Below, piece after piece: positions 11,458 through 26,805 of a stretch of 64,000 nucleotides of DNA (the first letter of the stretch is position 1; every line of letters starts with the position of its first letter). The DNA comes from a phage, in the sequence record PX880101.1. The stretch is one strand, 5' to 3'. A program made the position numbers and the translations under genes. Below the pieces are notes generated by a model. That model was not told the DNA's origin. It made no database searches and saw nothing but the letters and a program-made list of their open reading frames with translations.

Positions 11458-11466
11458 GTATGATAT

Positions 11467-12581: not shown

Positions 12582-13598
12582 TACTTGAAAATTCCTGGCA
12601 TATCAAGTGTAAGGGGGATTTCTAAAATGGATTTCCTCCTTTTGATATTTCACCGGGCTGGATATTTTAAAATTCTTAGAAAATCAGAAAATGGATCGAA
12701 AACTAAAATGGATTTTTCAGAGTAGGCGCGACAAGCTGAATAACTCATCCTATCGTTTGCACCATATTCCAGGCCACCATTATAGATTTCCCACACATGC
12801 TAACCTCCCTCTACTAGAACTTCCTCCACTTGCCCTTAACCTTCTATGGTAACAATCTAACCACTATCTTGAAGTTGCGGTGCAGCTTTCCAAGTACTCG
12901 ATCTACTTTTCATTTCATGGCTTGGATTTTCTGAAAATTTTTCTCGATAAATTTCTCAGTACTCGATCTGTTTTTCGTTTTCTGAATCGGATTTTCTGGA
13001 AATCGTTCCGGATCTCGACCTGAAATTTTTGGGGACGAAATCGATTTTTCGTTTTCAGAAATGGATTTTTAAAATTTCTATATGGGAATATTTTATGGGA
13101 TACTGTTTTATAGGAAATTGTTACGGAGGGTAATTAGCATGCTAATTAAATTTATTAAATGCGAGGAGTTCTCATTTAGAATTTTGAATGATAATCATTC
13201 TCGTTTGCAGAATAACGGGCAGGCCCGGTGATTGTCTCCCGGCCCCTGTTGCCCCGGCTTGTTATTATAGTATCACACAGGACAAAGAAAGCAAGGATTT
13301 TTTGCATAAATTTTTAAATGATAATGATAACCGTTCTCATTTTATGCAGCGCCCATCCCCGGTGGTTGTCTCCCCCGTCACCGGTGCCTGCCGTCCTTTC
13401 GATAGGTATATTTTGCCACCTGGCGGGGCCGCTGTCAACACTTTTCAAAAAAAAATTTCTAACCTGATGCGCTGACCGCTGCAACCTGGCGGGGCCAGCC
13501 TGGCAGGGCCTAACTGACCAGGTAGGAGATAATGAAGGCTTGCAAACCTGGTGGGCCTATGCTATAGGATAGGTAACAATTGAAGAGGAGGTACAAAA
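12582..13598. repeat. Repeat-rich non-coding spacer (AAATGGATTT-type motifs, about 45-bp degenerate direct repeats, two about 60-bp tandem units)
   Basis: No convincing ORF; direct repeats read at 12620-12720, 12895-13075, 13185-13250 and 13313-13375. Confidence 0.55.
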
Positions 13599-13775
13599 AT
13601 GGAAGGTAATATGATCCCCCTGGAAAATGTAGCTATTAATGACACTGAGGCTATCGCCCTGGTTGAAAAGGCTATGGCGGGAGCGTTGGAACATAAAGAA
13701 GAGTACGAAAAAATGATGGTTAACCTGGCAGGGGCGGCGGCTGGAGAATTCTACCCAAAAAATAATTTTAACTAA
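13599..13775 (+). CDS. hypothetical protein (58 aa)
   Basis: ATG after GAAGAGGAGGT; not in the supplied ORF track. Confidence 0.4.
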   Translation: MEGNMIPLENVAINDTEAIALVEKAMAGALEHKEEYEKMMVNLAGAAAGEFYPKNNFN

Positions 13776-13778
13776 TGG

Positions 13779-13807
13779 TTGACAGCTCGGACAGTTCTTG
13801 TTATTCT
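13779..13807 (+). promoter_or_regulatory. sigma70-like promoter TTGACA-N17-TATTCT
   Basis: Hexamers read directly. Confidence 0.45.
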
Positions 13808-13860
13808 TATCCTCGCAAGGTGAACAACACCACACCAATTAACAGAGAGGATAAAAAATC

Positions 13861-14058
13861 ATGAACGCCTACGGAATTAAAGTACGTCGCAACACTCGCC
13901 AGGTGGTCACCAATCAAGTGATTTGCCGGGTGGATGTAACCATCAACAACGGGCAAGGCCTTTATAAATTTCGTCGCGGTCATAGCTATACCCTGCAGCA
14001 GCTTAACCGTTGCGCCCTGACAAAAGGTCAGATCAACCACTGGTTTAATAAAAAATAA
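13861..14058 (+). CDS. hypothetical protein
   Basis: AGAGGATAAAAAATC-ATG leader. Confidence 0.5.
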   Translation: MNAYGIKVRRNTRQVVTNQVICRVDVTINNGQGLYKFRRGHSYTLQQLNRCALTKGQINHWFNKK

Positions 14059-14061
14059 ATA

Positions 14062-14090
14062 TTGACACGTAGTCTGACACAAAATATACT
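14062..14090 (+). promoter_or_regulatory. sigma70-like promoter TTGACA-N17-TATACT
   Basis: Consensus hexamers. Confidence 0.55.
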
Positions 14091-14122
14091 TAAATCACAA
14101 AAGACACTAAGAGGATAAAATC

Positions 14123-14521
14123 ATGAAAACTACAACCTTTAATTTTGACAATGCCGACTTCTCTTTTTCTGATGTTAAGAATTGCCGCCGTGATCGTGGA
14201 TTTTACAAGGCTTATAATCTGGTTGGCCTAGACGATGATAATAATTTGCACGAAGTAGCGGAGATCCGGTACTATGCCGCCGCCAGCGGTAACACTAACT
14301 ACTGCGTTTTTTGGATACACGACAACAAGAATAATAAGTACGGTTATACTGGTGGCAAGGCGAGCGGTCACGGTTATGATAAGGCCAATGCAGCACTTGA
14401 GAGCGCGTTAAATGCTATGGGGATCACTGCCAACGGCTGGATCTATGAAGATGAGTTTTTGTCAGCACTTGCTGCCCACCTGGGGTATAAAAAGCACATT
14501 GTGACATGCGCCCACGAATAA
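14123..14521 (+). CDS. hypothetical protein
   Basis: AAGAGGATAAAATC-ATG leader. Confidence 0.55.
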   Translation: MKTTTFNFDNADFSFSDVKNCRRDRGFYKAYNLVGLDDDNNLHEVAEIRYYAAASGNTNYCVFWIHDNKNNKYGYTGGKASGHGYDKANAALESALNAMGITANGWIYEDEFLSALAAHLGYKKHIVTCAHE

Positions 14522-14531
14522 AAAAAAATTA

Positions 14532-14559
14532 TTGACACGCTGCAAAATTAAAGTAAACT
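14532..14559 (+). promoter_or_regulatory. sigma70-like promoter TTGACA-N16-TAAACT
   Basis: Hexamers read directly; followed by leader hairpin GGCGGGAA-TGT-TTCCCGCC. Confidence 0.5.
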
Positions 14560-14608
14560 AGACACAAAAGGCGGGAATGTTTCCCGCCAACACAAAGGAA
14601 AAAAGATC

Positions 14609-15004
14609 ATGAATAAGAACGTACGCCGCATCATGAACGAACTGGCAAACGATGAAAAAATTATTGATATGCATTTGGTAAACATTTGCCGCCGTTGTGT
14701 AACATATAACAACCGCGCCGCAAAAGCGCGTGAGATGAACGCAAAAGGCACCTTAAAGCCCTTTCAGGTGGTTGTAAAATCTATAACCAGTGCAGCAGAC
14801 CAGGCGCATGACCACAACAACGGGAGCACTAATATTGATCCGTCTTACGTAATGAAACGGATCCGGACTTGCAAGAATAAAGAGCAGGTGTATAACGTCA
14901 TAGATTGGTTGGACTCCCTGGGCGATGTGGTTTATAATAGGTTTTCTGCAGCTATCGAGATCCAGCTTGACAGACTGGACGGGAAAGTACTGAAAACTTA
15001 CTAA
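14609..15004 (+). CDS. hypothetical protein
   Basis: ORF after promoter and leader hairpin. Confidence 0.55.
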   Translation: MNKNVRRIMNELANDEKIIDMHLVNICRRCVTYNNRAAKAREMNAKGTLKPFQVVVKSITSAADQAHDHNNGSTNIDPSYVMKRIRTCKNKEQVYNVIDWLDSLGDVVYNRFSAAIEIQLDRLDGKVLKTY

Positions 15005-15051
15005 GTTTATTTTTAGATGGCCTTGACGCCAGGGCCATCAATAAAGTAAAC
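15005..15051 (+). promoter_or_regulatory. Conserved 45-bp intergenic cassette, copy 1 (T-tract, inverted repeat GATGGCC-N10-GGCCATC, embedded TTGAC and TAAAGT/TAAACT)
   Basis: Near-identical copies at 15626-15670 and 19364-19408; each follows a stop codon and precedes an SD. Confidence 0.5.
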
Positions 15052-15083
15052 TAATCCCAGTTAAGCTAAAAGGAGGCTTGAAG

Positions 15084-15203
15084 ATGAGCACTACACGCCA
15101 GCACACAAAGGTAACTATTATCGTTTGCATCATTGGTTATATCCTGGCGCAAATGTTGATGGGTAGCGCCAACGGTGTCGCAAAATTTTTCTTAAACTTT
15201 TAA
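15084..15203 (+). CDS. hypothetical small membrane peptide (39 aa)
   Basis: AAAAGGAGG SD; hydrophobic core. Confidence 0.35.
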   Translation: MSTTRQHTKVTIIVCIIGYILAQMLMGSANGVAKFFLNF

Positions 15204-15231
15204 TTGACAAGCTAACTTAGATCGGTATACT
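15204..15231 (+). promoter_or_regulatory. sigma70-like promoter TTGACA-N16-TATACT
   Basis: Consensus hexamers. Confidence 0.55.
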
Positions 15232-15281
15232 AAACACATCAACGGGAAAACTTCCCAGAACACACAAAAGGAGAAAACACC

Positions 15282-15623
15282 ATGACCACTATGACCGCCG
15301 CAGAAAAAGCTATTCAGATCGCTGCCCTGAAAAAACAGATCGCAGACCTTGAGAATAAGATCGATAACTTTGAAATCGACGAGGACAAGTACGACGAAAA
15401 CTATGATGAATGGTTAGACGAGATCTACGGCGAAATTATGATCGGAAACATTTCTTTTCTTCCGTCGCGTATCCTCAAGGAGCTAGATCCTATCGCTTAC
15501 CGCTGCGGATTTAGCGACTACATCGACAGCCTGGATATTGAGGACGATGAAGAATACCAGGAATTACAGACAGAGTTGGAAGAAGCAAAAGAAGAGCTTG
15601 CGGAGCTGGAAGAAAACGAGTAA
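15282..15623 (+). CDS. hypothetical acidic coiled-coil protein
   Basis: AAAAGGAGA SD; D/E-rich heptad-like sequence. Confidence 0.55.
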   Translation: MTTMTAAEKAIQIAALKKQIADLENKIDNFEIDEDKYDENYDEWLDEIYGEIMIGNISFLPSRILKELDPIAYRCGFSDYIDSLDIEDDEEYQELQTELEEAKEELAELEENE

Positions 15624-15625
15624 GA

Positions 15626-15670
15626 TTATTTTTAGATGGCCTTGACTCCAGGGCCATCAATAAAGTAAAC
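15626..15670 (+). promoter_or_regulatory. Conserved 45-bp intergenic cassette, copy 2
   Basis: ATTATTTTTAGATGGCCTTGACTCCAGGGCCATCAATAAAGTAAAC. Confidence 0.5.
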
Positions 15671-15712
15671 TTTATACTGTTAACACTGAACTAATGCATA
15701 GGAGTTAAAACC

Positions 15713-15958
15713 ATGGCAGCACTAATCACTAAATATTACGCCCCTACCAACACCAAAAGCGCCCGTATCATGGTAAAAGGCTTCGGACGTAAAAAGGTTT
15801 ACACCTGGGATTATGCCTTAGACACGGAAGACAACTACACCAACGCGATGACAGATTTTATTAATGAGCTGAACACGCGGATCTTGACAAATTATAAAAT
15901 TACCGATATTGCCTATATAGGGGAAGGCGGGATCTGTTTTGTCGGTATCGTCAAATAA
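15713..15958 (+). CDS. hypothetical protein
   Basis: TAGGAGTTAAAACC-ATG. Confidence 0.5.
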   Translation: MAALITKYYAPTNTKSARIMVKGFGRKKVYTWDYALDTEDNYTNAMTDFINELNTRILTNYKITDIAYIGEGGICFVGIVK

Positions 15959-16034
15959 ACTGTTTTTTCGGTGGTCCTGGTAGCAGGGCCATCTATAAAG
16001 ATAGTTTATCAATACAATGAAAGGAGAAAGTAAC

Positions 16035-16388
16035 ATGATCAGTGGGGCAAGTTTTATTATTGGCGCTATTGCTACGGCTTTAATTGTAAACAAGATCCAA
16101 TCTAAAAACGAAAAAGAGAGCAACGCGCTCACAGAATACCCATTTTGGATATTCAACGACAATGAAGACTACATTATCAAGTACAAGAATGAGAAGGGCG
16201 ACCAGGTAACACCGCGACCGATCCCGGCCTACAAGATGCAAGAAACACTATACCGCCTAAAGGCTGGAGGCGCAAAAATCGTAGACTTTTGGGGATATGA
16301 TTGCAAGGATCAGGAGGTTATAAAACGGCGTATCCGGGCTATTCAGGCCAATATTGAAGTTAGCAAGGGGGGAATATATGAAGATTAA
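16035..16388 (+). CDS. hypothetical membrane protein
   Basis: ATG after GAAAGGAGA; hydrophobic N-terminus. Confidence 0.5.
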   Translation: MISGASFIIGAIATALIVNKIQSKNEKESNALTEYPFWIFNDNEDYIIKYKNEKGDQVTPRPIPAYKMQETLYRLKAGGAKIVDFWGYDCKDQEVIKRRIRAIQANIEVSKGGIYED

Positions 16389-16575
16389 TTTTGAGAAGAT
16401 TGTAAAGCGATCTCATGATTCCGAAGAGCTGCCGGAACGCCGCCAGCGTAACAATAAACTGAATAAGCCAAAAAGATTTGGGAAGATCTGGCGGAATCAT
16501 TATGATCGTAAATTGCCGGGCCTCCTTTTGGAACGTGAACGGCAGGCGGAACGATACCGCCACAAAGGCAACTAA
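16378..16575 (+). CDS. hypothetical basic protein
   Basis: ATG after AAGGGGGG; R/K-rich. Confidence 0.4.
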   Translation: MKINFEKIVKRSHDSEELPERRQRNNKLNKPKRFGKIWRNHYDRKLPGLLLERERQAERYRHKGN

Positions 16576-16583
16576 CAACCAAC

Positions 16584-16611
16584 GCCCCGCCATCGTGCGG
16601 GGCTTTTTATT
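16584..16611 (+). terminator. Rho-independent terminator
   Basis: GCCCCGC-CATCGT-GCGGGGC followed by TTTTTATTT. Confidence 0.6.
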
Positions 16612-16755
16612 TCTACCCTACGAATAGCGCCCCTGGTTGGCCCTGTAAGCGCCAAAAAGGCCCCACCTATGCAATCGCCCCCTTTAACCTGAAAACATCG
16701 CTTAGGGCCGTTTTATGGCGTTAAAAATATCATTGACAGTGATTTTATTTAAAGC

Positions 16756-16783
16756 TTGACATCTTAAACAGGTTAGCTATACT
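16756..16783 (+). promoter_or_regulatory. sigma70-like promoter TTGACA-N16-TATACT
   Basis: Consensus hexamers. Confidence 0.55.
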
Positions 16784-16815
16784 AACCACATCAAAGAGAG
16801 AAAGGAGTAAACGCC

Positions 16816-17076
16816 ATGCGTAAATTAAAAAATTTTGATAAAGTTGATGTTGTCCTGAATAATTTTTACTACTGCAACAACAAGGCCATTTGGTGGCGTG
16901 ATAGTTCCACCGATAAAGTCAAGGCGCGCTTTCTCCAGGGGCACTGGCAAGGCCGCCCAGTGATTAAAATCATGGGGCAATTGGTAGCGTTTAAAAATTG
17001 CCGCCGTGTTGATGACGTTGAGGAGATTTTAAACATTTTGCGCCACAATAATTTAAAAAATAGTGTTGACAAGTAA
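16816..17076 (+). CDS. hypothetical protein
   Basis: AAAGGAGTAAACGCC-ATG. Confidence 0.5.
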   Translation: MRKLKNFDKVDVVLNNFYYCNNKAIWWRDSSTDKVKARFLQGHWQGRPVIKIMGQLVAFKNCRRVDDVEEILNILRHNNLKNSVDK

Positions 17077-17093
17077 ATCTCAATAAGTATAAT
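17066..17093 (+). promoter_or_regulatory. sigma70-like promoter TTGACA-N16-TATAAT
   Basis: Consensus hexamers; followed by leader hairpin GGCGG...CCGCC. Confidence 0.55.
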
Positions 17094-17150
17094 TAAACAC
17101 ACAGGCGGGAAAACTTACCGCCACTAACAAAGAAAACAGGAGAAAATATC

Positions 17151-17774
17151 ATGACCACCGTTAACATTACCACAGGTTACAATTTATCTTTCGACGTGCT
17201 GACCGACGAACAAAAAGAAAAAGCCATTGAAATGGTACGCGAAAGAGAAGAACACAGCGGGGATGACTTTTTTGCAGAAAGTGTAATTGAACACTACAAA
17301 GAATATATCTTTCCAGAGTACGGCCTTGAAGATACCGAAGTACATTGGTCCGGCTTTTGGTGCCAGGGTGACGGCGCGTCAATCAGTGCTGAAAACGTGG
17401 ATTTAGAAAAATTTTTGCGTAAAGTAAAGGCCCTGACCAAGTTCCGATCAATTCGTCACTTGTTCGGCACAATGCACGATGGCGAGTTATCAGCCAGTGT
17501 TGAACGCGACAAGTACAGCCATTACAGCCATGAAAACACTGTAAGCGGATACATTGATACCACCTGGCTAGATCTGACCGCCAAACAAGAAAACAAAGTG
17601 GAAGACCTGGAAGAGCTGATCACCGAGACGGTACGGGAGCTATCCCGCAAGGTTTACGTAGACCTGGAGGAGGCCTATCTAGAACAGTTCACTACCGAAA
17701 ACCTGATCGGCCTTATTGAGGCCAATGATTGGCGGTTTGATGTGGATGAATATGGAGAGATGAGTTTTTCATAA
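17151..17774 (+). CDS. hypothetical protein (207 aa)
   Basis: ACAGGAGAAAATATC-ATG; no motif I can name. Confidence 0.55.
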   Translation: MTTVNITTGYNLSFDVLTDEQKEKAIEMVREREEHSGDDFFAESVIEHYKEYIFPEYGLEDTEVHWSGFWCQGDGASISAENVDLEKFLRKVKALTKFRSIRHLFGTMHDGELSASVERDKYSHYSHENTVSGYIDTTWLDLTAKQENKVEDLEELITETVRELSRKVYVDLEEAYLEQFTTENLIGLIEANDWRFDVDEYGEMSFS

Positions 17775-17865
17775 ATAAAGTGTTGCAATAATCTAAAAAC
17801 CTGCTATATTAAAACTCAAGGGGGGGCAAGACGTTTGCCCCACACAAAACAAAGAGGAAAACATT

Positions 17866-18246
17866 ATGAAAAACACTACTAAAGCTATTGACACCGTTAT
17901 GTTTAACCTGGTTACCTTTCGCGAGGATATGAAAGATCTTCCACGTGAAACAGTGTGCGATCACATTGAAAACTATCGCAAACTAATCAAAGAGTTGCCT
18001 TTAAAACGTGACCAGTATGCGGCTAACGCTATGCTCAACGCCATGATCAAAAAGATGATTCAGTGTGATTTAACCCTGGCCTATGATTATGCAGGTGGTC
18101 GTTTTGCAGTATACAATCAGCCCGTGCCTGGTATGAGCACCACCGAAGAATTGCACGCGTTAAATCTGAAACAAGATGTATGGGATAACATGCCCCGCGT
18201 GGTGGTGTGGGCAGAAAGCGGAAAGATTTACGGCGATAATTTTTAA
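17866..18246 (+). CDS. hypothetical protein
   Basis: AAGAGGAAAACATT-ATG after promoter TTGCAA-N16-TATATT and GC hairpin. Confidence 0.55.
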   Translation: MKNTTKAIDTVMFNLVTFREDMKDLPRETVCDHIENYRKLIKELPLKRDQYAANAMLNAMIKKMIQCDLTLAYDYAGGRFAVYNQPVPGMSTTEELHALNLKQDVWDNMPRVVVWAESGKIYGDNF

Positions 18247-18310
18247 TCAGGTAACAGGCGGCATATTTGCCGCCTTATTGTTAAACAGAACTGCAAAAGA
18301 GGTACATAGA

Positions 18311-18682
18311 ATGGAATTTATTATTTTGGCTGTAGTAGTTGCCTTGTTCAACGCCTGGATCGCTGGCAAGATAGGTAGATCCGCTTTTCTATGGTTTGTT
18401 ATATCTATTTTCCTGGGAGTGGTTGCAACTATTGTATTGGTTATCCTTGCAATTGTTGACAAGGGCGATAATAGAAAGGGTAAAGTGTTTTCCGACCTGT
18501 ATGACGCACAAACGTTTGTCAACGCCTATTATAGTGATCTTCCAGTCTCCCTACGCTGCAGCCTGGCACAACAGGTTTTTGATGAGGCTAAAACCAGAGA
18601 CCAAGCCCATGAGATATGTTTAACTGAAGCGGATCGCCTATTTGAGAGGAATAGAAAATATGTGGACCAGCCGTTTAAATAA
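18311..18682 (+). CDS. hypothetical membrane protein (two predicted TM helices)
   Basis: ATG after AAAGAGGTA; hydrophobic N-terminus. Confidence 0.5.
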   Translation: MEFIILAVVVALFNAWIAGKIGRSAFLWFVISIFLGVVATIVLVILAIVDKGDNRKGKVFSDLYDAQTFVNAYYSDLPVSLRCSLAQQVFDEAKTRDQAHEICLTEADRLFERNRKYVDQPFK

Positions 18683-18900
18683 CGCCACGTTAATTAATCC
18701 CTTTAGTGAAGATTTGAAGCCAGCCGCCTGGCGTGACGGATTCAATAACGAACGCTTTATTTTCAGGCCTGATCTTGAGGAATTTTATAACAATGGATCG
18801 AACAACAGCGGAGATAATTTTTCTTGTGGTGTGCGTGGTGATAGGACTCCTGGGGGCCATTGTAAACCACGTCACTACTAACAGGAGGGAAGGGGGAGAC

Positions 18901-19020
18901 GATGACAACCAAGGATAAGCCATGCGCTGATAAGGTGCGCCGTGTTATGGTATGGCTTGAGATTATCGCCCTTGAAATATTGTTAGGCGTAGGGATGTAC
19001 TTTATCGCTGTAAGTAACTA
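18901..19020 (+). CDS. hypothetical small membrane peptide
   Basis: ATG after GGGAAGGGGGAGA; the region 18640-18920 has overlapping alternative frames. Confidence 0.3.
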
Positions 19021-19025
19021 AGAGC

Positions 19026-19060
19026 GGCCCCCGATCATGGGGGCCTATCTTTTAAAAAAT
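19026..19060 (+). terminator. Rho-independent terminator
   Basis: GGCCCCC-GATCAT-GGGGGCC followed by a T-rich run. Confidence 0.55.
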
Positions 19061-19159
19061 TTTTCTTCCGGGGTGTTGCAATCCGGTCCGGAATGTGGAT
19101 AATAACAATCAACGGGGAGCTAATCCCCACCACCACAAAAACCAGAAAGGAGAAACAAA

Positions 19160-19360
19160 ATGAGCAACAATATCCGCGTTATTAACTTCAAAAAAGAAGA
19201 AAAAATTGCCGTGCTGATTGACGGTCAAGAAATCTTCAAGGGCGACTATGAAGATCATCAAACGGCGATTAGTATCACTCGCGTGATTGGTTATCATAAT
19301 TTCTACCCCCAAGGCGCTGAGGCAGCAGTTAAACGAATCAAAGAGATTGTAGGCCTGTAA
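19160..19360 (+). CDS. hypothetical protein
   Basis: GAAAGGAGAAACAAA-ATG. Confidence 0.5.
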   Translation: MSNNIRVINFKKEEKIAVLIDGQEIFKGDYEDHQTAISITRVIGYHNFYPQGAEAAVKRIKEIVGL

Positions 19361-19363
19361 AAT

Positions 19364-19408
19364 TTATTTTTAGATGGCCTTGACTTCAGGGCCATCGATA
19401 AAGTAAAT
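19364..19408 (+). promoter_or_regulatory. Conserved 45-bp intergenic cassette, copy 3
   Basis: TTATTTTTAGATGGCCTTGACTTCAGGGCCATCGATAAAGTAAAT. Confidence 0.5.
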
Positions 19409-19444
19409 TTAAACCCTGTTAAAATACCACGCAGTTAACAAGGA

Positions 19445-19753
19445 GTGATAGACATGTTTATCCAGGCTAATAATCTTTATTTCTTTGATGGTCAGATCGT
19501 AGATGGTGTGGAAGTGGAGATCACCGGGTGCCCTGGCGGTCAGGCTATGACTTTTCGGAATAATGCCTTTGATGATTCTCATATCGTTATGAGAATGGAA
19601 GTTACGAAGCTGGACGACAAGAAAACACTTATTGACTATTCTGTGAAAGATCATCCAGACTACCGCATGATCCATGGTGATTTGTGCATTGTTGACCGTG
19701 ACAAGGTGGGCGGCATTGTGATCGCTATTGTGAACGATGTTTTCTCAAACTAA
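19445..19753 (+). CDS. hypothetical protein
   Basis: AACAAGGAGTGATAGAC-ATG. Confidence 0.55.
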   Translation: MIDMFIQANNLYFFDGQIVDGVEVEITGCPGGQAMTFRNNAFDDSHIVMRMEVTKLDDKKTLIDYSVKDHPDYRMIHGDLCIVDRDKVGGIVIAIVNDVFSN

Positions 19754-19846
19754 TTTCAGCAGGCGATTTTATGAAAGTCAAACTATATTACCTTAATGAG
19801 CTTAACCCCCTTGCCCAGGTCCGCGCCCTAGCTAATACCTTGATTT

Positions 19847-20110
19847 GTGAGAAATCTGTATATTGTGTTGAGCTTAACACGTCTCAAAGGTGGTTACTTT
19901 GACATCCATGCTGCAATCAACGGCCTGAATATGGAATTTATACGCTTACGTAACAGCCGCCGGAATCTGGCAAGAATGGAACAAGATCCGGCCCACCTTC
20001 GCAAGCTGGTTATTGAAAATCATCTGATGTTTAATGCCGAGGGGGATTATTACCATTTTCACCGCAAACGCTGGTACCGTGGCGGCAATACAGGCAAGAA
20101 TGCAAAATAA
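19847..20110 (+). CDS. hypothetical protein (start uncertain)
   Basis: ORF; no clear SD at the first ATG. Confidence 0.3.
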   Translation: MRNLYIVLSLTRLKGGYFDIHAAINGLNMEFIRLRNSRRNLARMEQDPAHLRKLVIENHLMFNAEGDYYHFHRKRWYRGGNTGKNAK

Positions 20111-20146
20111 GGCCCCTAGCAGGGCCTGCAGCAATATAATCACATA

Positions 20147-20180
20147 AAGGCCATGCGGTTGCATGGCCTTTATTATTTTG
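20147..20180 (+). terminator. Rho-independent terminator
   Basis: AAAGGCCATGC-GGTT-GCATGGCCTTT followed by ATTATTTT. Confidence 0.55.
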
Positions 20181-20312
20181 GCGTTACAACGGCATACGGG
20201 GCGCTTAAAAAATTTTTAAAGAAGTACTTGCATCATTCCCGACAATATGGATAATAAGAGTTGTCGAGGGGGAGGCCCCCAATCGTTGACCAGATAGATA
20301 GGAGTTAAAATC

Positions 20313-20597
20313 ATGGCTATTGTTACCGCTGGCGATGTAGTAGAAATGGAAGCAAAATACTTAAAAGCGGGTATGCACATCCTACGGAATGATCAAGAGT
20401 TATTATTAACGATGGTTGACTATAATCACGGCCAGGATTATCCAAGCATCGACTACTTTTTTGAGTATGTTGATGAAGAGTTGAAAGAGGATGAGGCCTA
20501 TTGCGGTGAGTTCTGCAACTTCTTTTGTCCTGATGAGGTTGTAAAGGTTATTTATCAACCTGGCGTAGCTTTCCCGCTGCACGCTATCAATAAATAA
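20313..20597 (+). CDS. hypothetical protein
   Basis: TAGGAGTTAAAATC-ATG. Confidence 0.5.
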   Translation: MAIVTAGDVVEMEAKYLKAGMHILRNDQELLLTMVDYNHGQDYPSIDYFFEYVDEELKEDEAYCGEFCNFFCPDEVVKVIYQPGVAFPLHAINK

Positions 20598-20652
20598 ACC
20601 TGGCGGGGCCGAAAAGGCCCCCAATTATGAAAATAAAGAGAGGCAAATCATC

Positions 20653-20886
20653 ATGATGGAACAAATTAAACGCGCCGAGGCTATTAATGGCAACGTGATC
20701 TATTTTGTCAGCAAAAACGAAAAAGGCGTACCATATGCGGCAGTAATAGTACAACCTGACGGCGATTATTGGTTTACTGTGTACGGCGCTTATTCTTTTG
20801 GGCGTCCAGTGCATGATAAAATTTTGAAAGTAGCGAACCCTACCGGGAAGAATATCACAGCAGAAAAATTTTTTGAAAATAGTTGA
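20653..20886 (+). CDS. hypothetical protein
   Basis: AAGAGAGGCAAATCATC-ATG. Confidence 0.5.
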   Translation: MMEQIKRAEAINGNVIYFVSKNEKGVPYAAVIVQPDGDYWFTVYGAYSFGRPVHDKILKVANPTGKNITAEKFFENS

Positions 20887-20961
20887 CATGACCATATAAG
20901 ACTGTAATATATAAATCAAAGGGGGCAACGAACCCCACCAACTACAAAGAGGATAAAAATC

Positions 20962-21141
20962 ATGGCTATTATTGCAAAGACTGAGATCGTAGGCTTAGAT
21001 TCTATTCTCCTCGCATATGAGGAAGCTATAGAAATGTATGTGGTTTCCTATGGTGAGTATATCCGTGAATATAAATCTATTGATCTGGCTTTTGAATGTT
21101 ATATCCGCCAGGTTAATAAAGCGTACGATGATTATCGTTAA
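20962..21141 (+). CDS. hypothetical protein (59 aa)
   Basis: Promoter TTGACA-N16-TAATAT, then AAAGAGGATAAAAATC-ATG; not in the supplied ORF track. Confidence 0.4.
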   Translation: MAIIAKTEIVGLDSILLAYEEAIEMYVVSYGEYIREYKSIDLAFECYIRQVNKAYDDYR

Positions 21142-21225
21142 AATAGTTTGACAACAGCCATCTTACAAAGCATAATACATAAGGCGGTGGAATGGTCCGC
21201 CACCTGGAACAAAGAAGAGGTAAAC

Positions 21226-21474
21226 ACCATGAAAAGCAATAAAGGTTATAACGGTTACAAAAACAAAACTCATTGGAATGTAAGCCTTTGGATTAATAAC
21301 GATGAGTCATTGTACCGGTTGGCCCAAGGCTTTATTAACGCCAATGCTAATCGTAATGATGCGGCGCGGGATATGATGCTTTTTCTGGAGCTAACCGGAC
21401 AAGATAAGACCCCGGACGGCTTCAAGTACAGCACTACGGCGATCCGTGCCGCGATGGTTGGAATGAAACACTAA
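21226..21474 (+). CDS. hypothetical protein
   Basis: Internal ATG after GAAGAGGTAAACACC; promoter-like TTGACA lies inside the listed 21148 start region. Confidence 0.45.
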   Translation, partial: TMKSNKGYNGYKNKTHWNVSLWINNDESLYRLAQGFINANANRNDAARDMMLFLELTGQDKTPDGFKYSTTAIRAAMVGMKH

Positions 21475-21665
21475 AAGCACATAGCTGCCTTACCCTGGGG
21501 CTGTGGTAGCGGCCCCATGAATAAGGTTACTAACAGAAGAGAATAAACACCGTGAAACAGAAATTAATCGATGCAGTGATCTTGGTTATTGCCCTGGGTA
21601 TTGGCCTGATTGCAACCATGTCTAATATGATCTTGTCTTCCAACGGTATCTGGTGAGGTTGGCAA

Positions 21666-21881
21666 ATGATCACTAACAAAACAGGCAAAACGGAATTTTT
21701 ACGCAACTTACAGATCGGCAAGCCTGAGATCTGGTACTGCACTAAAACACCGCGTGACGAAATGAAAGACTTCACCGCCACGCTGCAACGGGTAAAGATA
21801 TCTATCACGCAGAAAAAGGCCTTACTAGTGGTGGAAGGGGAGATCCCCCAAACCGTTGTTATAGTTGAGCGTACAGCATAG
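21666..21881 (+). CDS. hypothetical protein
   Basis: ORF with GAGGT upstream. Confidence 0.4.
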   Translation: MITNKTGKTEFLRNLQIGKPEIWYCTKTPRDEMKDFTATLQRVKISITQKKALLVVEGEIPQTVVIVERTA

Positions 21882-21972
21882 TTTAATTTATACAGATACC
21901 TGAAAATTAACCAACAAAGCATAAACAGGCGGTTACCGCCGCCTTAAACGTAGCAGAAAGAGGATAGACACA

Positions 21973-22257
21973 ATGAAAAAGATGATCGCAGTGGTTACCC
22001 TGGTTGTTGGACTTAATGCGCCTGTAATGGCTAAAGAGCTGGCAAAAGAGGTTAATCTAACGGATATTCATGCCGTCAATCAAATCGGGGTTACTTATCG
22101 CTTATGCCTTGCCGCTAAAACTTTTAAGGACGGCACAACAGAGTACTACGGATTCGAGGGTATCCGGTGCGGTGAGCTTGCTCGCGACCTTAAGGAAGAT
22201 CCAGACCTGGAGGAACTGCCCATAACCGTGAACGGGAAAACTTACGTGAACCGTTAA
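21973..22257 (+). CDS. hypothetical secreted protein (N-terminal signal peptide)
   Basis: MKKMIAVVTLVVGLNAPVMA signal-like N-terminus; GAAAGAGGATAGACACA-ATG. Confidence 0.5.
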   Translation: MKKMIAVVTLVVGLNAPVMAKELAKEVNLTDIHAVNQIGVTYRLCLAAKTFKDGTTEYYGFEGIRCGELARDLKEDPDLEELPITVNGKTYVNR

Positions 22258-22259
22258 CC

Positions 22260-22394
22260 ATGAGAAAGATAATTATTACCATGGGGATCGTGGCGGCAAT
22301 GTTGGCGATCTTTCCCTTTATGGTTAGGTATGTGCTGATTAATGTTGTCCTGGTAGTCAGCGATCTGGTGTTATATATTAACTCATTGTTTTAG
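22260..22394 (+). CDS. hypothetical small membrane peptide
   Basis: ATG overlaps the upstream stop; hydrophobic. Confidence 0.3.
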   Translation: MRKIIITMGIVAAMLAIFPFMVRYVLINVVLVVSDLVLYINSLF

Positions 22395-22402
22395 GCGCGA
22401 TA

Positions 22403-22594
22403 ATGACAGCGGAAGAAGTTAAAAAAGTACTGGCGGTACTGCGTTATCATAATCATTGCAAGGTGAAGAATGATCCTGATTATCTTGATTCATCCCTTGA
22501 AGAGGATACACTACAAGCCATAAGCAACATGCAAGAATTGCTTAAGCGTATGACAGAGAAAAACCGACCGGACTACATAGGGGGTAAAATATGA
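22403..22594 (+). CDS. hypothetical protein
   Basis: ORF in array. Confidence 0.45.
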   Translation: MTAEEVKKVLAVLRYHNHCKVKNDPDYLDSSLEEDTLQAISNMQELLKRMTEKNRPDYIGGKI

Positions 22595-22902
22595 TCGCTA
22601 TTACGCCAACCGTTTTAGATTGGTATCGGCAACGCATAGCGCCTCCGCTGGCTATCTTCAAAGATGCGGAAGCAAAACAACGCCGGATCTCAATACATGA
22701 GATCATCAACCTTAACGCTGGAGGCACACCATACCGCCCAGGACCTGGCCGTGAGATGGACAATACATTGGCGATCCTGAAGATACGCCGTAAACGGTCC
22801 TCCCTTACGCTGGATTCATTACACACAATGCAGTCTCCGTTCCAGGTGACTGGGAAACGGATCGCCAGGTCCTGGACAAAGGCCAATGACCGGACCGTAT
22901 AA
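22591..22902 (+). CDS. hypothetical protein
   Basis: ATGA coupling. Confidence 0.45.
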   Translation: MIAITPTVLDWYRQRIAPPLAIFKDAEAKQRRISIHEIINLNAGGTPYRPGPGREMDNTLAILKIRRKRSSLTLDSLHTMQSPFQVTGKRIARSWTKANDRTV

Positions 22903-23121
22903 ATAAAAAGTGTTTTGGTACTGATTTTGGGGTTGACTTGTTCGGCCCCTTTTGCTATTCTTATTAAACGGGCGGCACTTGGGAACAGGGGGAGACAATC
23001 ACCAGGCCTGCCTGTCATATAAGAACTATAAAAACCGTTGACATCTGCCAGGGGGGTGGGGTAACATTTATCTTGAAGGGGCAAAGGTGCCCACACAACA
23101 ACCAGAAGAGAGGAAAACACT

Positions 23122-23394
23122 ATGTCAAGCTGGATTAATCAAGAAGTCGAATCACGTTTTAATGCTATTTGGGATCTCATCGAAAAAGAAGACGGCACAT
23201 CAAGCCCCTACCTCAACAATTTGGAATTCCATTTTGTGGAAGCGATGAACGCAGAACATGATCACGAAGGTGGTGCGGACGAGTTCGCTAAAGGGTATGG
23301 CTTCAATAATGCCAACGAAATGATCGAGGCGGTTGTACTCCAGGCTGAGGAAGATTATCAATTAAAAACGCTTGAATTCTGCCGCCGTAAGTAA
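23122..23394 (+). CDS. hypothetical protein
   Basis: Promoter TTGACA-N18-TAACAT, hairpin GGGCA-AAGG-TGCCC, CACACAACAACC, AGAAGAGAGGAAAACACT-ATG. Confidence 0.5.
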   Translation: MSSWINQEVESRFNAIWDLIEKEDGTSSPYLNNLEFHFVEAMNAEHDHEGGADEFAKGYGFNNANEMIEAVVLQAEEDYQLKTLEFCRRK

Positions 23395-23454
23395 TAGGAT
23401 AATGACACGGGCCGGGAGGCCCACTAATCAGAACCACACAAAGAGGTAAACATC

Positions 23455-23718
23455 ATGAAACGTCTTGATCAGCTTAAACTAGTTCAGTACATGGCCTACA
23501 AAGTTCTTGAAGTCCAAAAAGGTAGCAAAAAAGAGGTTTGCGAGAAAGCATATAAGATCTTTACCCGTAAAAAAGATGATTGGATGTTACGCCAGACCAA
23601 AAAAGCCGATATCCTGGGATACCTGGAAGAAGAGATCCGACTTGAAGAACAAGAAGAGATCCGCCGTAGTGAGGCAGATTATCAGGCAGCTTGGGAAAAC
23701 TGGATGAGTAACAAATAA
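23455..23718 (+). CDS. hypothetical protein
   Basis: Hairpin GGGCC-GGGA-GGCCC, CACACAA, AAGAGGTAAACATC-ATG. Confidence 0.5.
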   Translation: MKRLDQLKLVQYMAYKVLEVQKGSKKEVCEKAYKIFTRKKDDWMLRQTKKADILGYLEEEIRLEEQEEIRRSEADYQAAWENWMSNK

Positions 23719-23785
23719 TACAACAAGTTACATGGTCAGGGGCAATAAAGCCCCTTGATCGCATAAAAAATTATGCTATCCTTGG

Positions 23786-23814
23786 TTGACAAGGATCGTC
23801 AGTTTTGCTATATT
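23786..23814 (+). promoter_or_regulatory. sigma70-like promoter TTGACA-N17-TATATT
   Basis: Consensus hexamers. Confidence 0.55.
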
Positions 23815-23862
23815 CTTTTTGAAGGGAAGTTGTAAGAAAATTAACTAAGAGGTAAAAACACC

Positions 23863-24282
23863 ATGAACATTAAATCTAATAATCCGGCATATAGCTTTGA
23901 TAACGCTTTTTGTCACGGTCCGGCGGCGAAAGGATTCGAAATCGATGGTAAACTAATTATTGTCAATGTTGACGGGGAAGAGGTTGCAGTATATCCGGTG
24001 GCAGACGTAAAAAGCCGTTTACAATGCCGCATTGATGTTACCGCCTATCAGCTTGATCCGGTCCGCATAGTTGCCCTGGTCCTGGAAGAAGAAATTAAAG
24101 CCATGCACCATAGCAACAGATTTATTGGTGACGCGCAGGATAATATGAAAGTATGCCGCCATAAAGTTAATGAAGTGCTTAAAGAGTACGGCTATAAAGA
24201 TCTTATGATCAAACGTGAGGAAAAATTCCGCTACCGTAACGACCTGGCAAATCGAATCTATGAAATATACGAATCATTATAA
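23863..24282 (+). CDS. hypothetical protein
   Basis: TAAGAGGTAAAAACACC-ATG. Confidence 0.55.
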   Translation: MNIKSNNPAYSFDNAFCHGPAAKGFEIDGKLIIVNVDGEEVAVYPVADVKSRLQCRIDVTAYQLDPVRIVALVLEEEIKAMHHSNRFIGDAQDNMKVCRHKVNEVLKEYGYKDLMIKREEKFRYRNDLANRIYEIYESL

Positions 24283-24300
24283 TTTCTTAACTAAACTATC

Positions 24301-24328
24301 AGGGGCTTTAAAAGGCCCCTTTCTTTTT
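24301..24328 (+). terminator. Rho-independent terminator closing the plus-strand early block
   Basis: AGGGGCTTT-A-AAAGGCCCCT followed by TTCTTTTTGT. Confidence 0.6.
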
Positions 24329-24929
24329 GTCTGTATTTCTCCTACCACAAACGGCCCAGCCTGGCAAGTGGAATAATTGACTAGCCATCAATCCCACACA
24401 CTGTACAAATATACATGGAAAATAACTATTGCATAATTTTTCATTGTGTGGTAGCAAGTCCATTTTTACCCGTTTTCTCTCTCAAAATTGCACGTAATGC
24501 CGCTATTGCACAAATTTTAACCTGATGCACATCTCCAATATCTTGTCAACAACTAAAAATCTTTATAAGTCATACACTTACACAGCATCGAAAGCGTGTT
24601 CTACGCGAAAAATCGAGTATAACTATAGCCGCCAGATCTCAGAATTCACGTACGCACGCCATTCTATAGCCTGCAAAGTATTTATTCCAACCACAGAATA
24701 ACGGAATAGTCAATACCTGCATAAAATAATTATTCGTGTAAACTGCATAACATAAATCAGCTCAGGTGTCAACATTTTTCGTAAACAGTCCGAAATTATC
24801 ACGATGAGTTATCATAAACAGAGAAATCTTTAGTCGTCTAATGTTTACTGTACATTACTATACTGACTGGAATCATTAGATGACTAAGAGAAAGATAAGA
24901 AATAATTAATAATGTAATTATTTTACCTG

Positions 24930-25240
24930 TAACAATAAGGCAACTATGCAAACGAATGGCATGGCGCGACGGAGTCGCGACATAATATAAAAGCAGTAAC
25001 CATCACCCCCGTGATAGTTTGTCTGCAATCTATTAATCAGATCATAGTTGCCTTGTATTCAGTTAATCATGACATAATAAGCAAGGCAACTATAGATCTG
25101 CTAATAGTTGCCCTGCTTTTATATTATGTCATAGAAACACCCGAAGGGGTGACCAAAGGTCACCTGGCATGGCCAGTGAAAGATTATTAACTTGTTAATT
25201 GTTAACTTGCTAATTGTTTTCATGCAAACGAATGTCATGG
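24930..25240. repeat. Cluster of inverted and direct repeats (GGCAACTAT in both orientations; 18-bp inverted arms GACATAATATAAAAGCAG; CATGCAAACGAATGNCATGGC direct repeat; palindrome CGCGAC-GGA-GTCGCG)
   Basis: Read directly from the sequence. Confidence 0.6.
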
Positions 25241-25249
25241 CTTATCCTA

Positions 25250-25330
25250 TCTGTGTAAACAGTTAAGGTGTAAACTATCCAGGCGTAAACAGTCTATGCG
25301 GGAACAATCTATACGTGAACAGTGAAACAT
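25250..25330. repeat. Iteron-like array: five or six copies of GT(A/G)AAC(A) at about 15-bp spacing
   Basis: tgtgTAAACAg, gtGTAAACt, gcGTAAACAg, gGGAACAat, cGTGAACAg, GTGAAACat. Confidence 0.55.
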
Positions 25331-26805
25331 GAAATAATAACAATCGTTATTGTGTCGAAAGTGTATAAGGTGTCATAGTATGTCAGACAAGTTTTTCTCC
25401 TCTTTGTCAAGTGCTGCATGAAAATTTACAAACTGGTATGGTAGCATTTTTGCGGCCCTGTTTACATTCAGTTGTGTATGTATAACCCTTGTTGTGTGGG
25501 CGTTTAGACGTCTGGACGGTTGGAAGTCTACAGGTCAATATCTAATCTATTGGCTGCTAACTATATCCCACACAAATAGTAAGAAATACAATTGTTATGT
25601 GAGTAAACGGTAACTCATGTTATCAATCCCTGTATGGATCGCCAGTGGTGCGCATAATGGGTATTATGTTAAATTGCCCGTAATGATAACTATTCTCACA
25701 ATGATAGGTATTCTCATTCACTCCCACAAGATAGGTTGCAAATGTTGTGCCACTGTGTGAACGGCCTCACCTATTAATTTGCCTCACTGCCTCGATATTT
25801 GAGAATTGTTATAAGAATGAGAAGTATTCCCATTTCGTCCGCCTGGCAGCACTCCAGTCGCTACCGCTCATGACAGGGCAGAACTGGGTCCATTCAGATA
25901 TTTCTGGCTGACTCTTCAGGTCTGTGTGGGAAAAGCCAACCTCTCCGGCGGGGCAGGGGTAGGTCAATTAAAAAATTTACGTGGTGTATGAAGAGCCCTT
26001 CAGGTAAGGCATGTATTATGGGATGAAACACCCTTCAGGCAATGATATTTGTGGGTGGGATATTTGCTGGAAAGCCAGATATGACGGGACTCCTGGCGGG
26101 GCAGGGGTAGTACAGACAGGGGAAATATGGTGGATGTAGTTGGGTGGATTGATCAGGCAGGTAGAGTATGGAATATGTTACAAGTATGTTAAATATGGAG
26201 GATGAATATCTGTAGGATTTGTGTGTAAAATCAAAGACTTAAGTGGTGTTGTGGTATTTTCTATAAATAATTCAAGTTTAATAGGTAATATTTGTCTCTA
26301 TCCGCTTTGTGTGGTAAACAAATTCAGATGGTGTTGGTTTACAAGTGTATACATAATATACAAATTAAAGATACAAGAAACCCCCCTCCCCCTTCGGCTA
26401 CCATTCACCTTTTCCTCTGACTGGTACTTAAACACTTATTCAGACTCTTCAGGTTATCACCCATATATCATATGGCAGTGACTGGTGTCCTCCGGCCCCT
26501 CTTTCGTCACCCGTCCGCTTCGCCATGCTAATGCCATAGCCAACGGTTCGGTTGTTCACCCTGTTCACTCAGGTGTATCTCCATACCCCTTCAAACCGAA
26601 GAGAACAGAAAACCCGAATTACTCGGTAAAAGAAAAGAGAAGAACTTAATTTTATCAGGATAGGCAAGAATGTCAAGGCATGACTGCTCACTAAACAAGC
26701 AAACAGTCATGTGTGGAAGGTAAGTGATTGTGGTGGTAGGAAATTTAGTTGAAAGATGTGTTATAGGTGCGCTTCCAGCACTTTAGCCGGGCAGCTAATT
26801 GTGTG

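Follow-up and report, generated by a model that had tools for sequence, protein, structure and literature searches.

The phage sequence PX880101.1, of which a stretch of 64,000 nucleotides (nt; hereafter the window) was analysed, belongs to an rV5-like Escherichia coli phage of the genus Vequintavirus. On its + strand, genes for a DNA primase/helicase and a DNA polymerase, as named in the annotation of the related phage MaxTheCat, lead into an extended run of small hypothetical genes, which reaches ~24.3 kb. Downstream lie a gene-poor stretch of ~2.5 kb and an array of small minus-strand genes that fills the remainder of the window. We studied the block at 13,779-24,328, in which about half of the small genes stand behind a repeated cassette of promoter, stem-loop, A/C-rich leader and ribosome site, a design that recalls the promoter-early stem-loops (PeSLs) of T4-like phages and whose stem-loop may protect early mRNA. 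The block was 99.8% identical to Escherichia phage A6-1 and matched 305 phage records, including many Vequintavirus genomes at 95-98% identity. At least 80% of it was covered by 63 records, and it was syntenic in 63 Vequintavirus records. The same layout has been described for the rV5 genome, with 33 predicted sigma-70 promoters and 20 terminators and no mention of a leader hairpin (PMC3606486).

Curation gave 31 open reading frames (ORFs) of 30-207 amino acids (aa) on the + strand between 13599 and 24282, consistent with the annotations of the phages Murica, MaxTheCat and Gotham and with the count of about 30 small genes in an earlier reading made from the letters of the DNA (the sequence-only reading). 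Genes are named here by their first position. Intergenic DNA made up 22.6% of the block. All 30 scanned block products fell into PHROG families of unknown function, and DUF7249 was the sole Pfam match above the cut-off for the ten largest products. Gene content differed among relatives chiefly in 20.9-22.9 kb. No tRNA genes were found in the window, and an Rfam scan of 13000-27500 returned nothing at the gathering score, with two sub-threshold hits at chance level.

Matches to TTGACA-N16-18-TATAAT at 10 or more of 12 positions occurred 12 times on the + strand of the block and once on the - strand, while a first-order Markov null gave 1.9 +/- 1.4 with a maximum of 7. The 25 nt 5′ of the -35 box of the 12 strong matches were 60-80% A+T (68-80% for the ten intergenic ones) compared with 57% for the block, and stop codons fell within these A+T-rich tracts. 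A match of at least 9/12 preceded 15 of the 31 genes, 12 with the ordinary promoter and three with a second promoter type described below; the gene at 20313 had a match of 8/12. About 15 genes lacked a promoter, and most of them abut or overlap the gene upstream. The sequence-only reading had seen a consensus promoter before nearly every gene, an observation that is real but overstated: strong matches are in clear excess, but only about half of the genes have one. Consensus promoters were equally frequent on the coding strand across the rest of the window. By their consensus and by analogy with the tested PeSL promoters (PMC2839356), the promoters of the block would fire early through the host RNA polymerase.

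Nine promoters were followed by a G+C-rich hairpin in the leader. These type A cassettes are listed below with the Shine-Dalgarno sequence (SD) where distinctive, the predicted folding free energy (dG) and the folding z-score (z) of the whole 5′ untranslated region (UTR) against shuffled controls.

14532-14608, + strand: type A cassette of gene 14609-15004; TTGACA-N16-TAAACT (14532-14559), hairpin GGCGGGAATGTTTCCCGCC at 14570-14588, AACACAAAGGAAAAAAGATC leader; dG -14.6, z -4.65; covariance-model match 38 bits
15204-15281, + strand: type A cassette of gene 15282-15623; TTGACA-N16-TATACT, weak hairpin GGGAAAACTTCCC at 15244-15256, CA-rich leader, AAGGAGA SD; z -1.66; covariance-model match 29.5 bits
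17066-17150, + strand: type A cassette of gene 17151-17774; TTGACA-N16-TATAAT (12/12), hairpin at 17104-17122, in which an A disrupts an 8-bp stem that is intact in six of six relatives; z -3.83
17783-17865, + strand: type A cassette of gene 17866-18246; TTGCAA-N16-TATATT, hairpin GGGGCAAGACGTTTGCCCC at 17823-17841, then ACACAAAACAAAGAGGAAAACATT; z -2.28
19076-19159, + strand: type A cassette of gene 19160-19360; TTGCAA-N16-GATAAT, hairpin GGGGAGCTAATCCCC at 19114-19128, ACCACCACAAAAACC leader; z -2.39
20228-20312, + strand: weaker type A cassette of gene 20313-20597; TTGCAT-N16-GATAAT (8/12), hairpin GGGGGAGGCCCCC at 20268-20280; z -0.52
20883-20961, + strand: type A cassette of gene 20962-21141; TTGACA-N16-TAATAT, hairpin at 20921-20936, then ACCAACTACAAAGAGGATAAAAATC; z -1.92
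21148-21228, + strand: type A cassette of gene 21229-21474; TTGACA-N17-CATAAT, hairpin at 21182-21205; z -2.12
23038-23121, + strand: type A cassette of gene 23122-23394; TTGACA-N18-TAACAT, hairpin GGGCAAAGGTGCCC at 23079-23092, then ACACAACAACCAGAAGAGAGGAAAACACT; z -0.89

In 9 of the 13 promoter-bearing leaders, the most stable perfect hairpin began 6-12 nt past the -10 hexamer, with the first stem base at offsets of 10, 12, 10, 12, 10, 12, 10, 6 and 11 nt. Shuffling gave 1.5% per leader for a hairpin in this position, and 9/13 then corresponds to a binomial tail of 3e-14, subject to the caveat that four of the nine hairpins are paralogous copies and independence is incomplete. Folding against shuffled controls likewise favoured structured leaders (mean z -2.25 over the nine 5′ UTRs). 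In total, 13 leaders carried a G+C-rich hairpin, nine behind a promoter and four without one. Their stems were 4-9 bp long, their distance to the ATG was 20-35 nt, and hairpins in leader position were confined within the window to 14.5-23.2 kb. The three hairpins that the sequence-only reading had picked as examples (14570-14588, 17104-17122 and 18257-18274) were all found. The order it proposed, promoter and then hairpin, holds for the nine leaders above and breaks down at four promoters without a hairpin and at four hairpins without a promoter, 18257-18274 among the latter.

Unrelated leaders carried different stems (GGCGGG, GGGGCAA, GGGGA, GGGCA) at the same position. Across six Vequintavirus relatives, 16 of 158 stem columns varied (10%), compared with 25 of 63 loop columns (40%) and 146 of 780 flanking columns (19%), giving Fisher P values of 1.5e-6 for stem versus loop and 0.008 for stem versus flank. 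Some changes touched the loop and kept the stems, as at 23414-23417 (GGGA to AAAA); in the loop of hairpin 19114-19128, three positions had changed in relatives, with one pair gained. When 41 distinct hairpins of the GGCGG type, taken from seven loci, were tabulated on a common anchor, one stem level proved to be G-C in 21 copies and C-G in 13, and one outer level GC in 19 copies, with GU in 11 and AU in 4. In these 41 hairpins, the core was almost invariant, and stem levels -1 to +2 were 100% G-C or C-G. RNAalifold predicted no pairs on a MAFFT alignment of 26 paralogous hairpins, in which the 3′ arms were misaligned. Two covariance models (R1 and R2) for the GGCGGGAA..TTCCCGCC subfamily identified four copies in the window and ~20 in relatives, strongly favouring the + strand, although they fail to recover the hairpins with unrelated stems. 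By these models, the copies at 14563, 15234, 17097 and 21176 belong to the cassette family that is also present in Phapecoctavirus and Justusliebigvirus. Taken together, the unrelated stems at one position, the contrast between stem and loop and one clear compensatory switch, rather than rich covariation, support a conserved stem-loop.

The spacer between hairpin and SD consisted of 54% A, 23% C, 11% G and 11% T, compared with 32% A, 20% C, 23% G and 25% T in the whole block, and AC directly followed the hairpin in 8 of 13 cases. The ribosome site of most leader-bearing genes read AAGAGG(A/T)AAA(A/C)A(C/T)C-ATG or AAAGGAG(A/T)AAA-ATG. Both the CA-rich tract and the stereotyped purine-rich ribosome site had been described in the sequence-only reading and are confirmed here. 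The sequences 3′ of the hairpins (AACACAAA, ACTAACAA, ACACAAAA, ACCACCAC and similar) do not have the U tract of an intrinsic terminator: 12 of the 13 leader hairpins have A/C tails in its place, whereas the five true terminators of the block have U tracts.

We regard the block as a hyperplastic early ORFan region in which about half of the ~31 small genes lie behind PeSL-like cassettes whose 5′ stem-loop shields the mRNA, a reading to which we assign a probability of roughly 55%. The proposed cassette would begin with an A+T-rich region and a near-consensus sigma-70 promoter for the unmodified host RNA polymerase. It would continue with a Gn-loop-Cn stem-loop, a single-stranded, A/C-rich and G/U-poor spacer of 10-20 nt, a purine-rich SD, an A-rich spacer and the ATG. 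Transcripts are predicted to start ~7 nt (7 +/- 1) past the -10 hexamer, which would place the stem-loop 0-6 nt from the transcription start and leave 0-6 unpaired 5′ nucleotides (median ~3). Because 12 of the 13 hairpins lack a U tract, the most plausible role of the stem-loop is protection of early mRNA from RNase E and not termination. RNase E prefers U-rich sites, and CA-rich leaders are translational enhancers. A 5′-terminal stem-loop would hinder RppH and the 5′-end-dependent attack of RNase E, and the U-poor leader would offer few RNase E sites. Such a leader would also be unable to pair with the SD, so that ribosomes should load efficiently. Since the hairpin would border the ribosome footprint, hardly any RNA would be left unprotected, and in transcripts that read through from upstream, the hairpins would be internal obstacles to 3′ exonucleases. 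The interpretation offered in the sequence-only reading is thus partly supported. A module for high-level expression by the host polymerase fits the near-consensus promoters with A+T-rich upstream DNA, the unstructured A/C leaders and the purine-rich SDs, and stabilised 5′ ends are also in our view the most plausible role of the hairpins, judging from their distance to the predicted start, the missing U tracts and the conserved stems.

Stabilisation of E. coli mRNA by 5′-terminal stem-loops is known from the ompA and papA 5′ UTRs (Emory 1992; Bouvet and Belasco 1992, as recounted in PMC3997798). As in the block, a stem-loop a few nucleotides from the 5′ end is followed there by a single-stranded segment and a ribosome site. 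However, ompA and papA are individual cellular genes whose mRNA ends and half-lives have been determined experimentally, whereas the block holds a repeated cassette known from its sequence. In the ompA and papA work, stabilisation is reported to need at most 2-4 unpaired 5′ nucleotides. Srd of phage T4 stimulates the attack of RNase E on host mRNA (Qi 2015, as recounted in PMC4980113), and gp11 of rV5 is probably an Srd homologue (PMC3606486), which together would provide a motive for shielding the phage's own transcripts. A more speculative version, to which we give only a slim chance, is that the GGCGG...CCGCC hairpin with its A/C tail is a 'self' mark, common to Vequintavirinae and Stephanstirmvirinae, that exempts phage mRNA from Srd-stimulated RNase E, or is read by an RNA-binding regulator timing early shut-off, and that it doubles as a homology patch between subfamilies.

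Several observations weigh against the shielding reading. Transcript 5′ ends, half-lives and expression timing for rV5-like phages were not found in the literature searched, and neither was a Phapecoctavirus transcriptome or map of transcription start sites. Some hairpins have low stability (-4 to -7 kcal/mol; z -0.5 and -0.9). Four strong promoters, those of genes 13861, 14123, 16816 and 23863, have no hairpin, and the four hairpins without a promoter (genes 18311, 20653, 21973 and 23455) cannot be 5′-terminal in a primary transcript. The insertions and deletions (indels) of genes 19771, 22260 and 22591 break at plain gene junctions with no cassette. A PeSL stem-loop of RB49/phi1 depressed the expression of a downstream lacZ to the same extent as rrnB T1 (PMC2839356). 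Covariation on the covariance-model alignment was not significant (one double-changed pair; 42 of 500 shuffles reached the observed score). Among orthologues in the six relatives, there were no compensatory, 2 one-sided and 14 pair-breaking changes, part of the 14 being due to poly-G length changes or register shifts. RNAalifold predicted no pairs on a MAFFT alignment of 26 paralogous hairpins, in which the 3′ arms were misaligned. Finally, the GGCGG...CCGCC core has been kept as a sequence in three genera, which fits gene conversion or a sequence-specific binder equally well.

Such a binder would make the repeat (hairpin GGGCGGCAAUGGUGCCGCUC, as RNA or as DNA) a sequence-specific site, namely a DNA operator at +3 to +25, an RNA tag for a phage regulator or nuclease, or the site of a recombinase that moves cassettes. 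This would explain why the core is almost invariant in 41 distinct copies from Vequintavirus, Phapecoctavirus and Justusliebigvirus, why a flanking (C/T)A(C/T)(A/G)TAG is also conserved and why covariation is weak, and the PeSL authors too speculated on a recombination protein that binds the stem-loop. However, five of the nine promoter-linked window hairpins place stems of unrelated sequence at this position, the loops change freely over conserved stems, and no candidate binding protein was identified among the block products, all of unknown function. We consider such a site improbable as the explanation of the hairpins.

The eight leaders that depart from the promoter-hairpin order are as follows.

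13779-13860, + strand: promoter-only leader of gene 13861; TTGACA-N17-TATTCT, no G+C-rich hairpin
14062-14122, + strand: promoter-only leader of gene 14123; TTGACA-N17-TATACT, unstructured leader of 32 nt
16733-16815, + strand: hairpin-less leader of gene 16816; a TTGACA box at 16733 beside the promoter TTGACA-N16-TATACT (16756-16783), 3′ of the terminator 16584-16603
23786-23862, + strand: promoter-only leader of gene 23863; TTGACA-N17-TATATT with TG
18256-18275, + strand: hairpin without promoter before gene 18311, then TATTGTT (UUAUUGUU); z -2.6
20605-20621, + strand: hairpin GGGGCCGAAAAGGCCCC without consensus promoter before gene 20653; ATCAATAAATAAAC upstream, similar to the -10 region of the second promoter type
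21927-21944, + strand: hairpin AGGCGGTTACCGCCGCCT without promoter before gene 21973; z -2.65
23409-23422, + strand: hairpin GGGCCGGGAGGCCC without consensus promoter before gene 23455; loop changed to AAAA in four relatives, with stems intact

Two of the hairpin-less leaders have features of their own. In the leader of gene 13861 (13809-13852), the SD GAGGAUA has a possible pairing partner in the predicted 5′ end, UAUCCUC (dG -10.7, z -4.22). Only 1 of 200 shuffles folds equally well, and the pairing is kept in phages FV3 and MaxTheCat, so that this leader may be self-sequestering. Upstream of gene 16816, ~150 nt of GC-rich non-coding DNA (16604-16755) form part of the longest intergenic space of the block (240 nt).

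The hairpins between genes bear on whether the stem-loops are, as has been suggested and in part tested for PeSLs, attenuators or insulators of transcription, which would damp read-through so that each gene's own promoter dominates, stabilisation being incidental. The lacZ result for the RB49/phi1 stem-loop speaks for this, as do the four hairpins that lie between genes with no promoter. One of these, 18256-18275, alone among the leader hairpins is followed by a partial U tract, and the Murica annotation calls it a terminator, as it does elements of the second promoter type. The true intrinsic terminators of the block, which divide it into five units, offer a comparison.

16584-16603, + strand: intrinsic terminator with U tract at the end of unit 1; GCCCCGCCATCGTGCGGGGC TTTTTATTT
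19026-19045, + strand: intrinsic terminator at the end of unit 2; GGCCCCCGATCATGGGGGCC TATCTTTT
20144-20173, + strand: intrinsic terminator at the end of unit 3; 13-bp stem, TATTTTGG
22929-22949, + strand: intrinsic terminator overlapping a promoter, TTGACT-N17-TATTCT
24301-24320, + strand: intrinsic terminator at the end of the + strand arm

These five have classic U tracts, in contrast to the A/C-rich sequence after nearly all leader hairpins. Moreover, nine hairpins lie 3′ of their own promoter, where a terminator would halt their own transcript too, and the hairpin offset is fixed relative to the -10 hexamer and not to the upstream stop codon. We therefore hold attenuation to be unlikely as the main function, though it deserves to be taken seriously.

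The closest known systems are the PeSLs of the T4-like phages RB49/phi1, PST and nt-1/KVP40 (Arbiol et al. 2010, PMC2839356; Comeau et al. 2014, PMC4122927). Like the block cassettes, PeSLs consist of an A+T-rich region, a sigma-70 consensus promoter, a Gn-loop-Cn stem-loop, an SD and a start codon. They are likewise concentrated in hyperplastic regions of small ORFans and show indels or replacements between close relatives with junctions inside the cassettes. Further traits ascribed to PeSLs are a terminator or attenuator activity of the stem-loop and encapsidated mini-circles that arise when neighbouring cassettes recombine. At the sequence level, all hallmarks of a PeSL were present in the block: promoter, A+T-rich upstream DNA, stem-loop, SD with start codon, association with ORFans and recombination at the cassettes. 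However, the hairpin of the block lies mostly inside the transcript (+1 to ~+25), which in PeSL terms is the rare 'downstream' class, and unlike PeSLs the cassette has a conserved A/C-rich leader and no U tract, making terminator activity doubtful. The phages concerned belong to the Vequintavirinae and Stephanstirmvirinae and are unrelated to T4-like phages, so that the claim is limited to an analogue or extension of the PeSL and does not extend to shared descent. We found no paper reporting PeSL-like elements or leader hairpins in either subfamily.

Host-type promoters in small-gene regions have been described before, in rV5 and in Certrevirus CB7 and CR3, where AAAA-N3-TGTTGAC-N19-TATAAT promoters cluster among short hypothetical genes (PMC7344957); in the Gotham record, PhagePromoter features are annotated. 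These promoters share with the block the host-type consensus, the clustering and UP-like A tracts, whereas their descriptions are silent on a leader hairpin, a CA-rich tract, a hairpin-embedded promoter type and cassette-mediated shuffling. Promoter clustering is thus all that the literature had already noted (PMC3606486, PMC7344957). New with respect to PeSLs are the move of the stem-loop into the 5′ UTR, the conserved A/C-rich leader and the evidence for exchange across subfamilies. The resemblance to PeSL cassettes had escaped the sequence-only reading, as had the hairpin-embedded promoter (type B), of which there are four copies and one degenerate relative.

15006-15052, + strand: type B cassette of gene 15084; TTTATTTTTA-GATGGCCTTGACGCCAGGGCCATC-AATAAAGTAAACT, -35 TTGACG in a 10-bp hairpin, -10 TAAACT; dG -29
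15627-15671, + strand: type B copy of gene 15713
15962-16006, + strand: type B variant of gene 16035; GGTGGTCCTGGTAGCAGGGCCATCTATAAAGATAG, no TTGAC
19364-19409, + strand: type B copy of gene 19454
21491-21530, + strand: degenerate type B-like element of gene 21552, which starts with GTG; TGGGGCTGTGGTAGCGGCCCCATGAATAAGGTTACT

None of the four ~45-nt copies was expected by chance. The element reads TTTATTTTTA-GATGGCCTTGACnCCAGGGCCATC-AATAAAGTAAACT, with a -35 box TTGAC(G/T) within a 10-bp hairpin and a -10 box TAAACT prefixed by AAAG. Its -10 region is identical to that of many cassettes of Phapecoctavirus tuntematon, and the whole element folds with -22 to -29 kcal/mol. Two copies are called terminators in the Murica annotation; no U tract follows on either strand. 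In type B, the hairpin lies over the -35 box. The commonest PeSL layout, a hairpin in the spacer between -35 and -10 or over the -10 box, is seen in the other arms of the window, where leaders measure ~30 nt.

RNase III processing of the leader hairpins and antitermination of the lambda type were rejected. In the T7 early region, RNase III hairpins are intercistronic, ~20-bp imperfect duplexes that end up at mRNA termini and stabilise the transcript. The block also has stem-loops in an early region, but the leader stems are too short for RNase III, and only type B (~19 bp with internal loops) is long enough; the elements at 15006-15052, 15627-15671 and 19364-19409 form an interrupted duplex that would in principle suffice. 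Antitermination of the lambda nut/boxB type does not fit hairpins that recur before many genes and not once per operon, and no sequence resembling boxA was seen. The hairpins in the -35/-10 spacer of minus-arm promoters contain the conserved sequence CACA(A/C)GGA(T/C)GTG (42616-42627, 58347-58358 and the leader of gene 35588, - strand). This sequence resembles ACARGGAUGU, the CsrA consensus from systematic evolution of ligands by exponential enrichment (SELEX); the pattern had 6 matches in the window versus 3.8 expected, which is no enrichment.

The cassette extends beyond Vequintavirus. A 63-nt cassette query in BLAST matched 153 phage records at 664 places, with up to 10 per genome. In Phapecoctavirus tuntematon (Stephanstirmvirinae), a highly stereotyped cassette precedes at least 21 of ~30 consecutive small genes. 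It consists of TTGACA, N16-17, TAAGAT/TAAACT/TAATAT, (G/T)TAT(C/T)AC(A/G)TA, GGGCGG...CCGC(C/T), an A/C-rich stretch and AGAGAGA...ATG, and several of its stems reach almost to the predicted +1, for example TCTTGTAGGGCGGC...GCCGCTCACAAGA (-21.2 kcal/mol). In Justusliebigvirus phi92, the cassette precedes ~13 of 20 genes; it is more stereotyped in tuntematon and phi92 than in the window. Most cassette genes of tuntematon (3300-13300) have a purine tract, AGAGAGA(T/A)TA, before the ATG that pairs poorly with the anti-SD and may be a non-canonical ribosome site.

Breakpoints between relatives fell at cassettes repeatedly. In Gotham, the gene at 21229 is gone and its promoter, hairpin and leader are joined to the ORF of gene 21552; this crossover lies in the similar ribosome-binding leaders ACAAAGAAGAGG and ACAGAAGAGAA (21243/21535). 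Gotham also carries an extra gene directly 3′ of the hairpin and leader of gene 23455 (junction 23423-23458), and the gene downstream of it has a tuntematon-like leader. Phages FV3 and JEP1 match the window through the -35 box TTGACA at 20883-20888 and continue with a Phapecoctavirus-type cassette (TAAGATGTATCACATAGGGCGGCAATAGTGCCGCTC) and different genes, and in DrSchubert the divergence starts past the -35 box of the promoter at 21148. All four phages realign with the window at 22950, at a terminator/promoter. Gene 23863 is absent from Gotham and FV3, with a junction between two AGGGGC...GCCCCT hairpins. By our reading of the ends of high-scoring segment pairs, which makes the counts approximate, ~14 of 17 distinct breakpoints were intergenic or at gene boundaries, and at least 8 lay within cassette elements. 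The repeated cassettes would thus serve as short patches of homology for the loss, gain and exchange of genes within Vequintavirus and with Phapecoctavirus and Justusliebigvirus.

Could the cassette be nothing but a selfish or neutral repeat, homogenised by phage recombination, with the hairpin a functionless former terminator? Paralogous copies are indeed highly similar with low covariation, the cassette boundaries coincide with mosaic junctions, and decayed copies exist (15244-15256, the window copy at 17104-17122 with its stem-breaking A, and the Gotham copy of 20921-20936). Yet among orthologues the share of variable columns in stems is half that in flanks and a quarter of that in loops, stems of unrelated sequence are found at one and the same offset, and the architecture has been kept in two subfamilies. 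We judge a functionless repeat to be quite improbable.

Gene-by-gene change also bears on the proposal of the sequence-only reading that the block is a separately acquired host-takeover module, compositionally distinct and visibly more GC-rich than the minus-strand arm. Block genes have a GC content of 43.4%, compared with 43.6% for the upstream small genes and 42.7% for the minus arm; it is only at third codon positions (GC3) that the block is somewhat higher, with 48.1% versus 41.7%. That difference, together with a leader-hairpin variant confined within the window to the block, is what speaks for acquisition as one piece. Overall composition is the same, the block is syntenic in the 63 relatives, and genes have changed one at a time, the breakpoints lying at cassettes. 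Homologues of several block genes occur in tuntematon, scattered and partly reordered, that of gene 20653 having moved, and the products are all of unknown function. Composition and synteny largely refute a one-block acquisition, which we consider very improbable.

If the shielding reading is true, mobile cassettes of the PeSL type are not peculiar to T4-like phages but would represent a design, convergent or shared, that large virulent coliphages use for their accessory early regions, and the exchange of ORFans between Vequintavirus, Phapecoctavirus and Justusliebigvirus would be explained. The transcript-internal position of the stem-loop would tie the design of the cassette, in a testable way, to the survival of mRNA in a phage that is likely to manipulate RNase E. 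The cassettes would also be ready-made, strong and compact expression units, and would mark points of gene gain and loss in therapeutic rV5-like phages.

Some further features of the window were recorded. At 19771-20110, the window lacks 11 nt (GCCATGCGTGA, near 19818) that are present in the 116-aa ORF of Murica and MaxTheCat, and this deletion splits the gene at 19771 into ORFs of 43 and 87 aa. The split reflects either a pseudogene with a frameshift or an error of assembly; Gotham and FV3 do not have the gene at all. The gene-poor ~2.5 kb between the convergent arms (24350-26800) correspond to the 'non-coding' box of the rV5 paper. They gave no Rfam match and contain several short direct repeats and an 18-nt perfect inverted repeat (24979-24996/25113-25130); 24-25 kb has the lowest GC content in the window (37.7%).

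Among the records that match the block, 23 GenBank entries are named 'Campylobacter phage' (MG0656xx series), for example Campylobacter phage D# (MG065647), with 94.5% identity across 94% of the block, and records of this series also appeared in both cassette searches. Their host labels or samples are probably wrong. Upstream of the block, the DNA polymerase gene (931-3980) is interrupted: an 809-aa ORF stops at 3360 and coding restarts past a gap. The MaxTheCat annotation joins this gene from two pieces, and the interruption is likely an intron or other intervening element.

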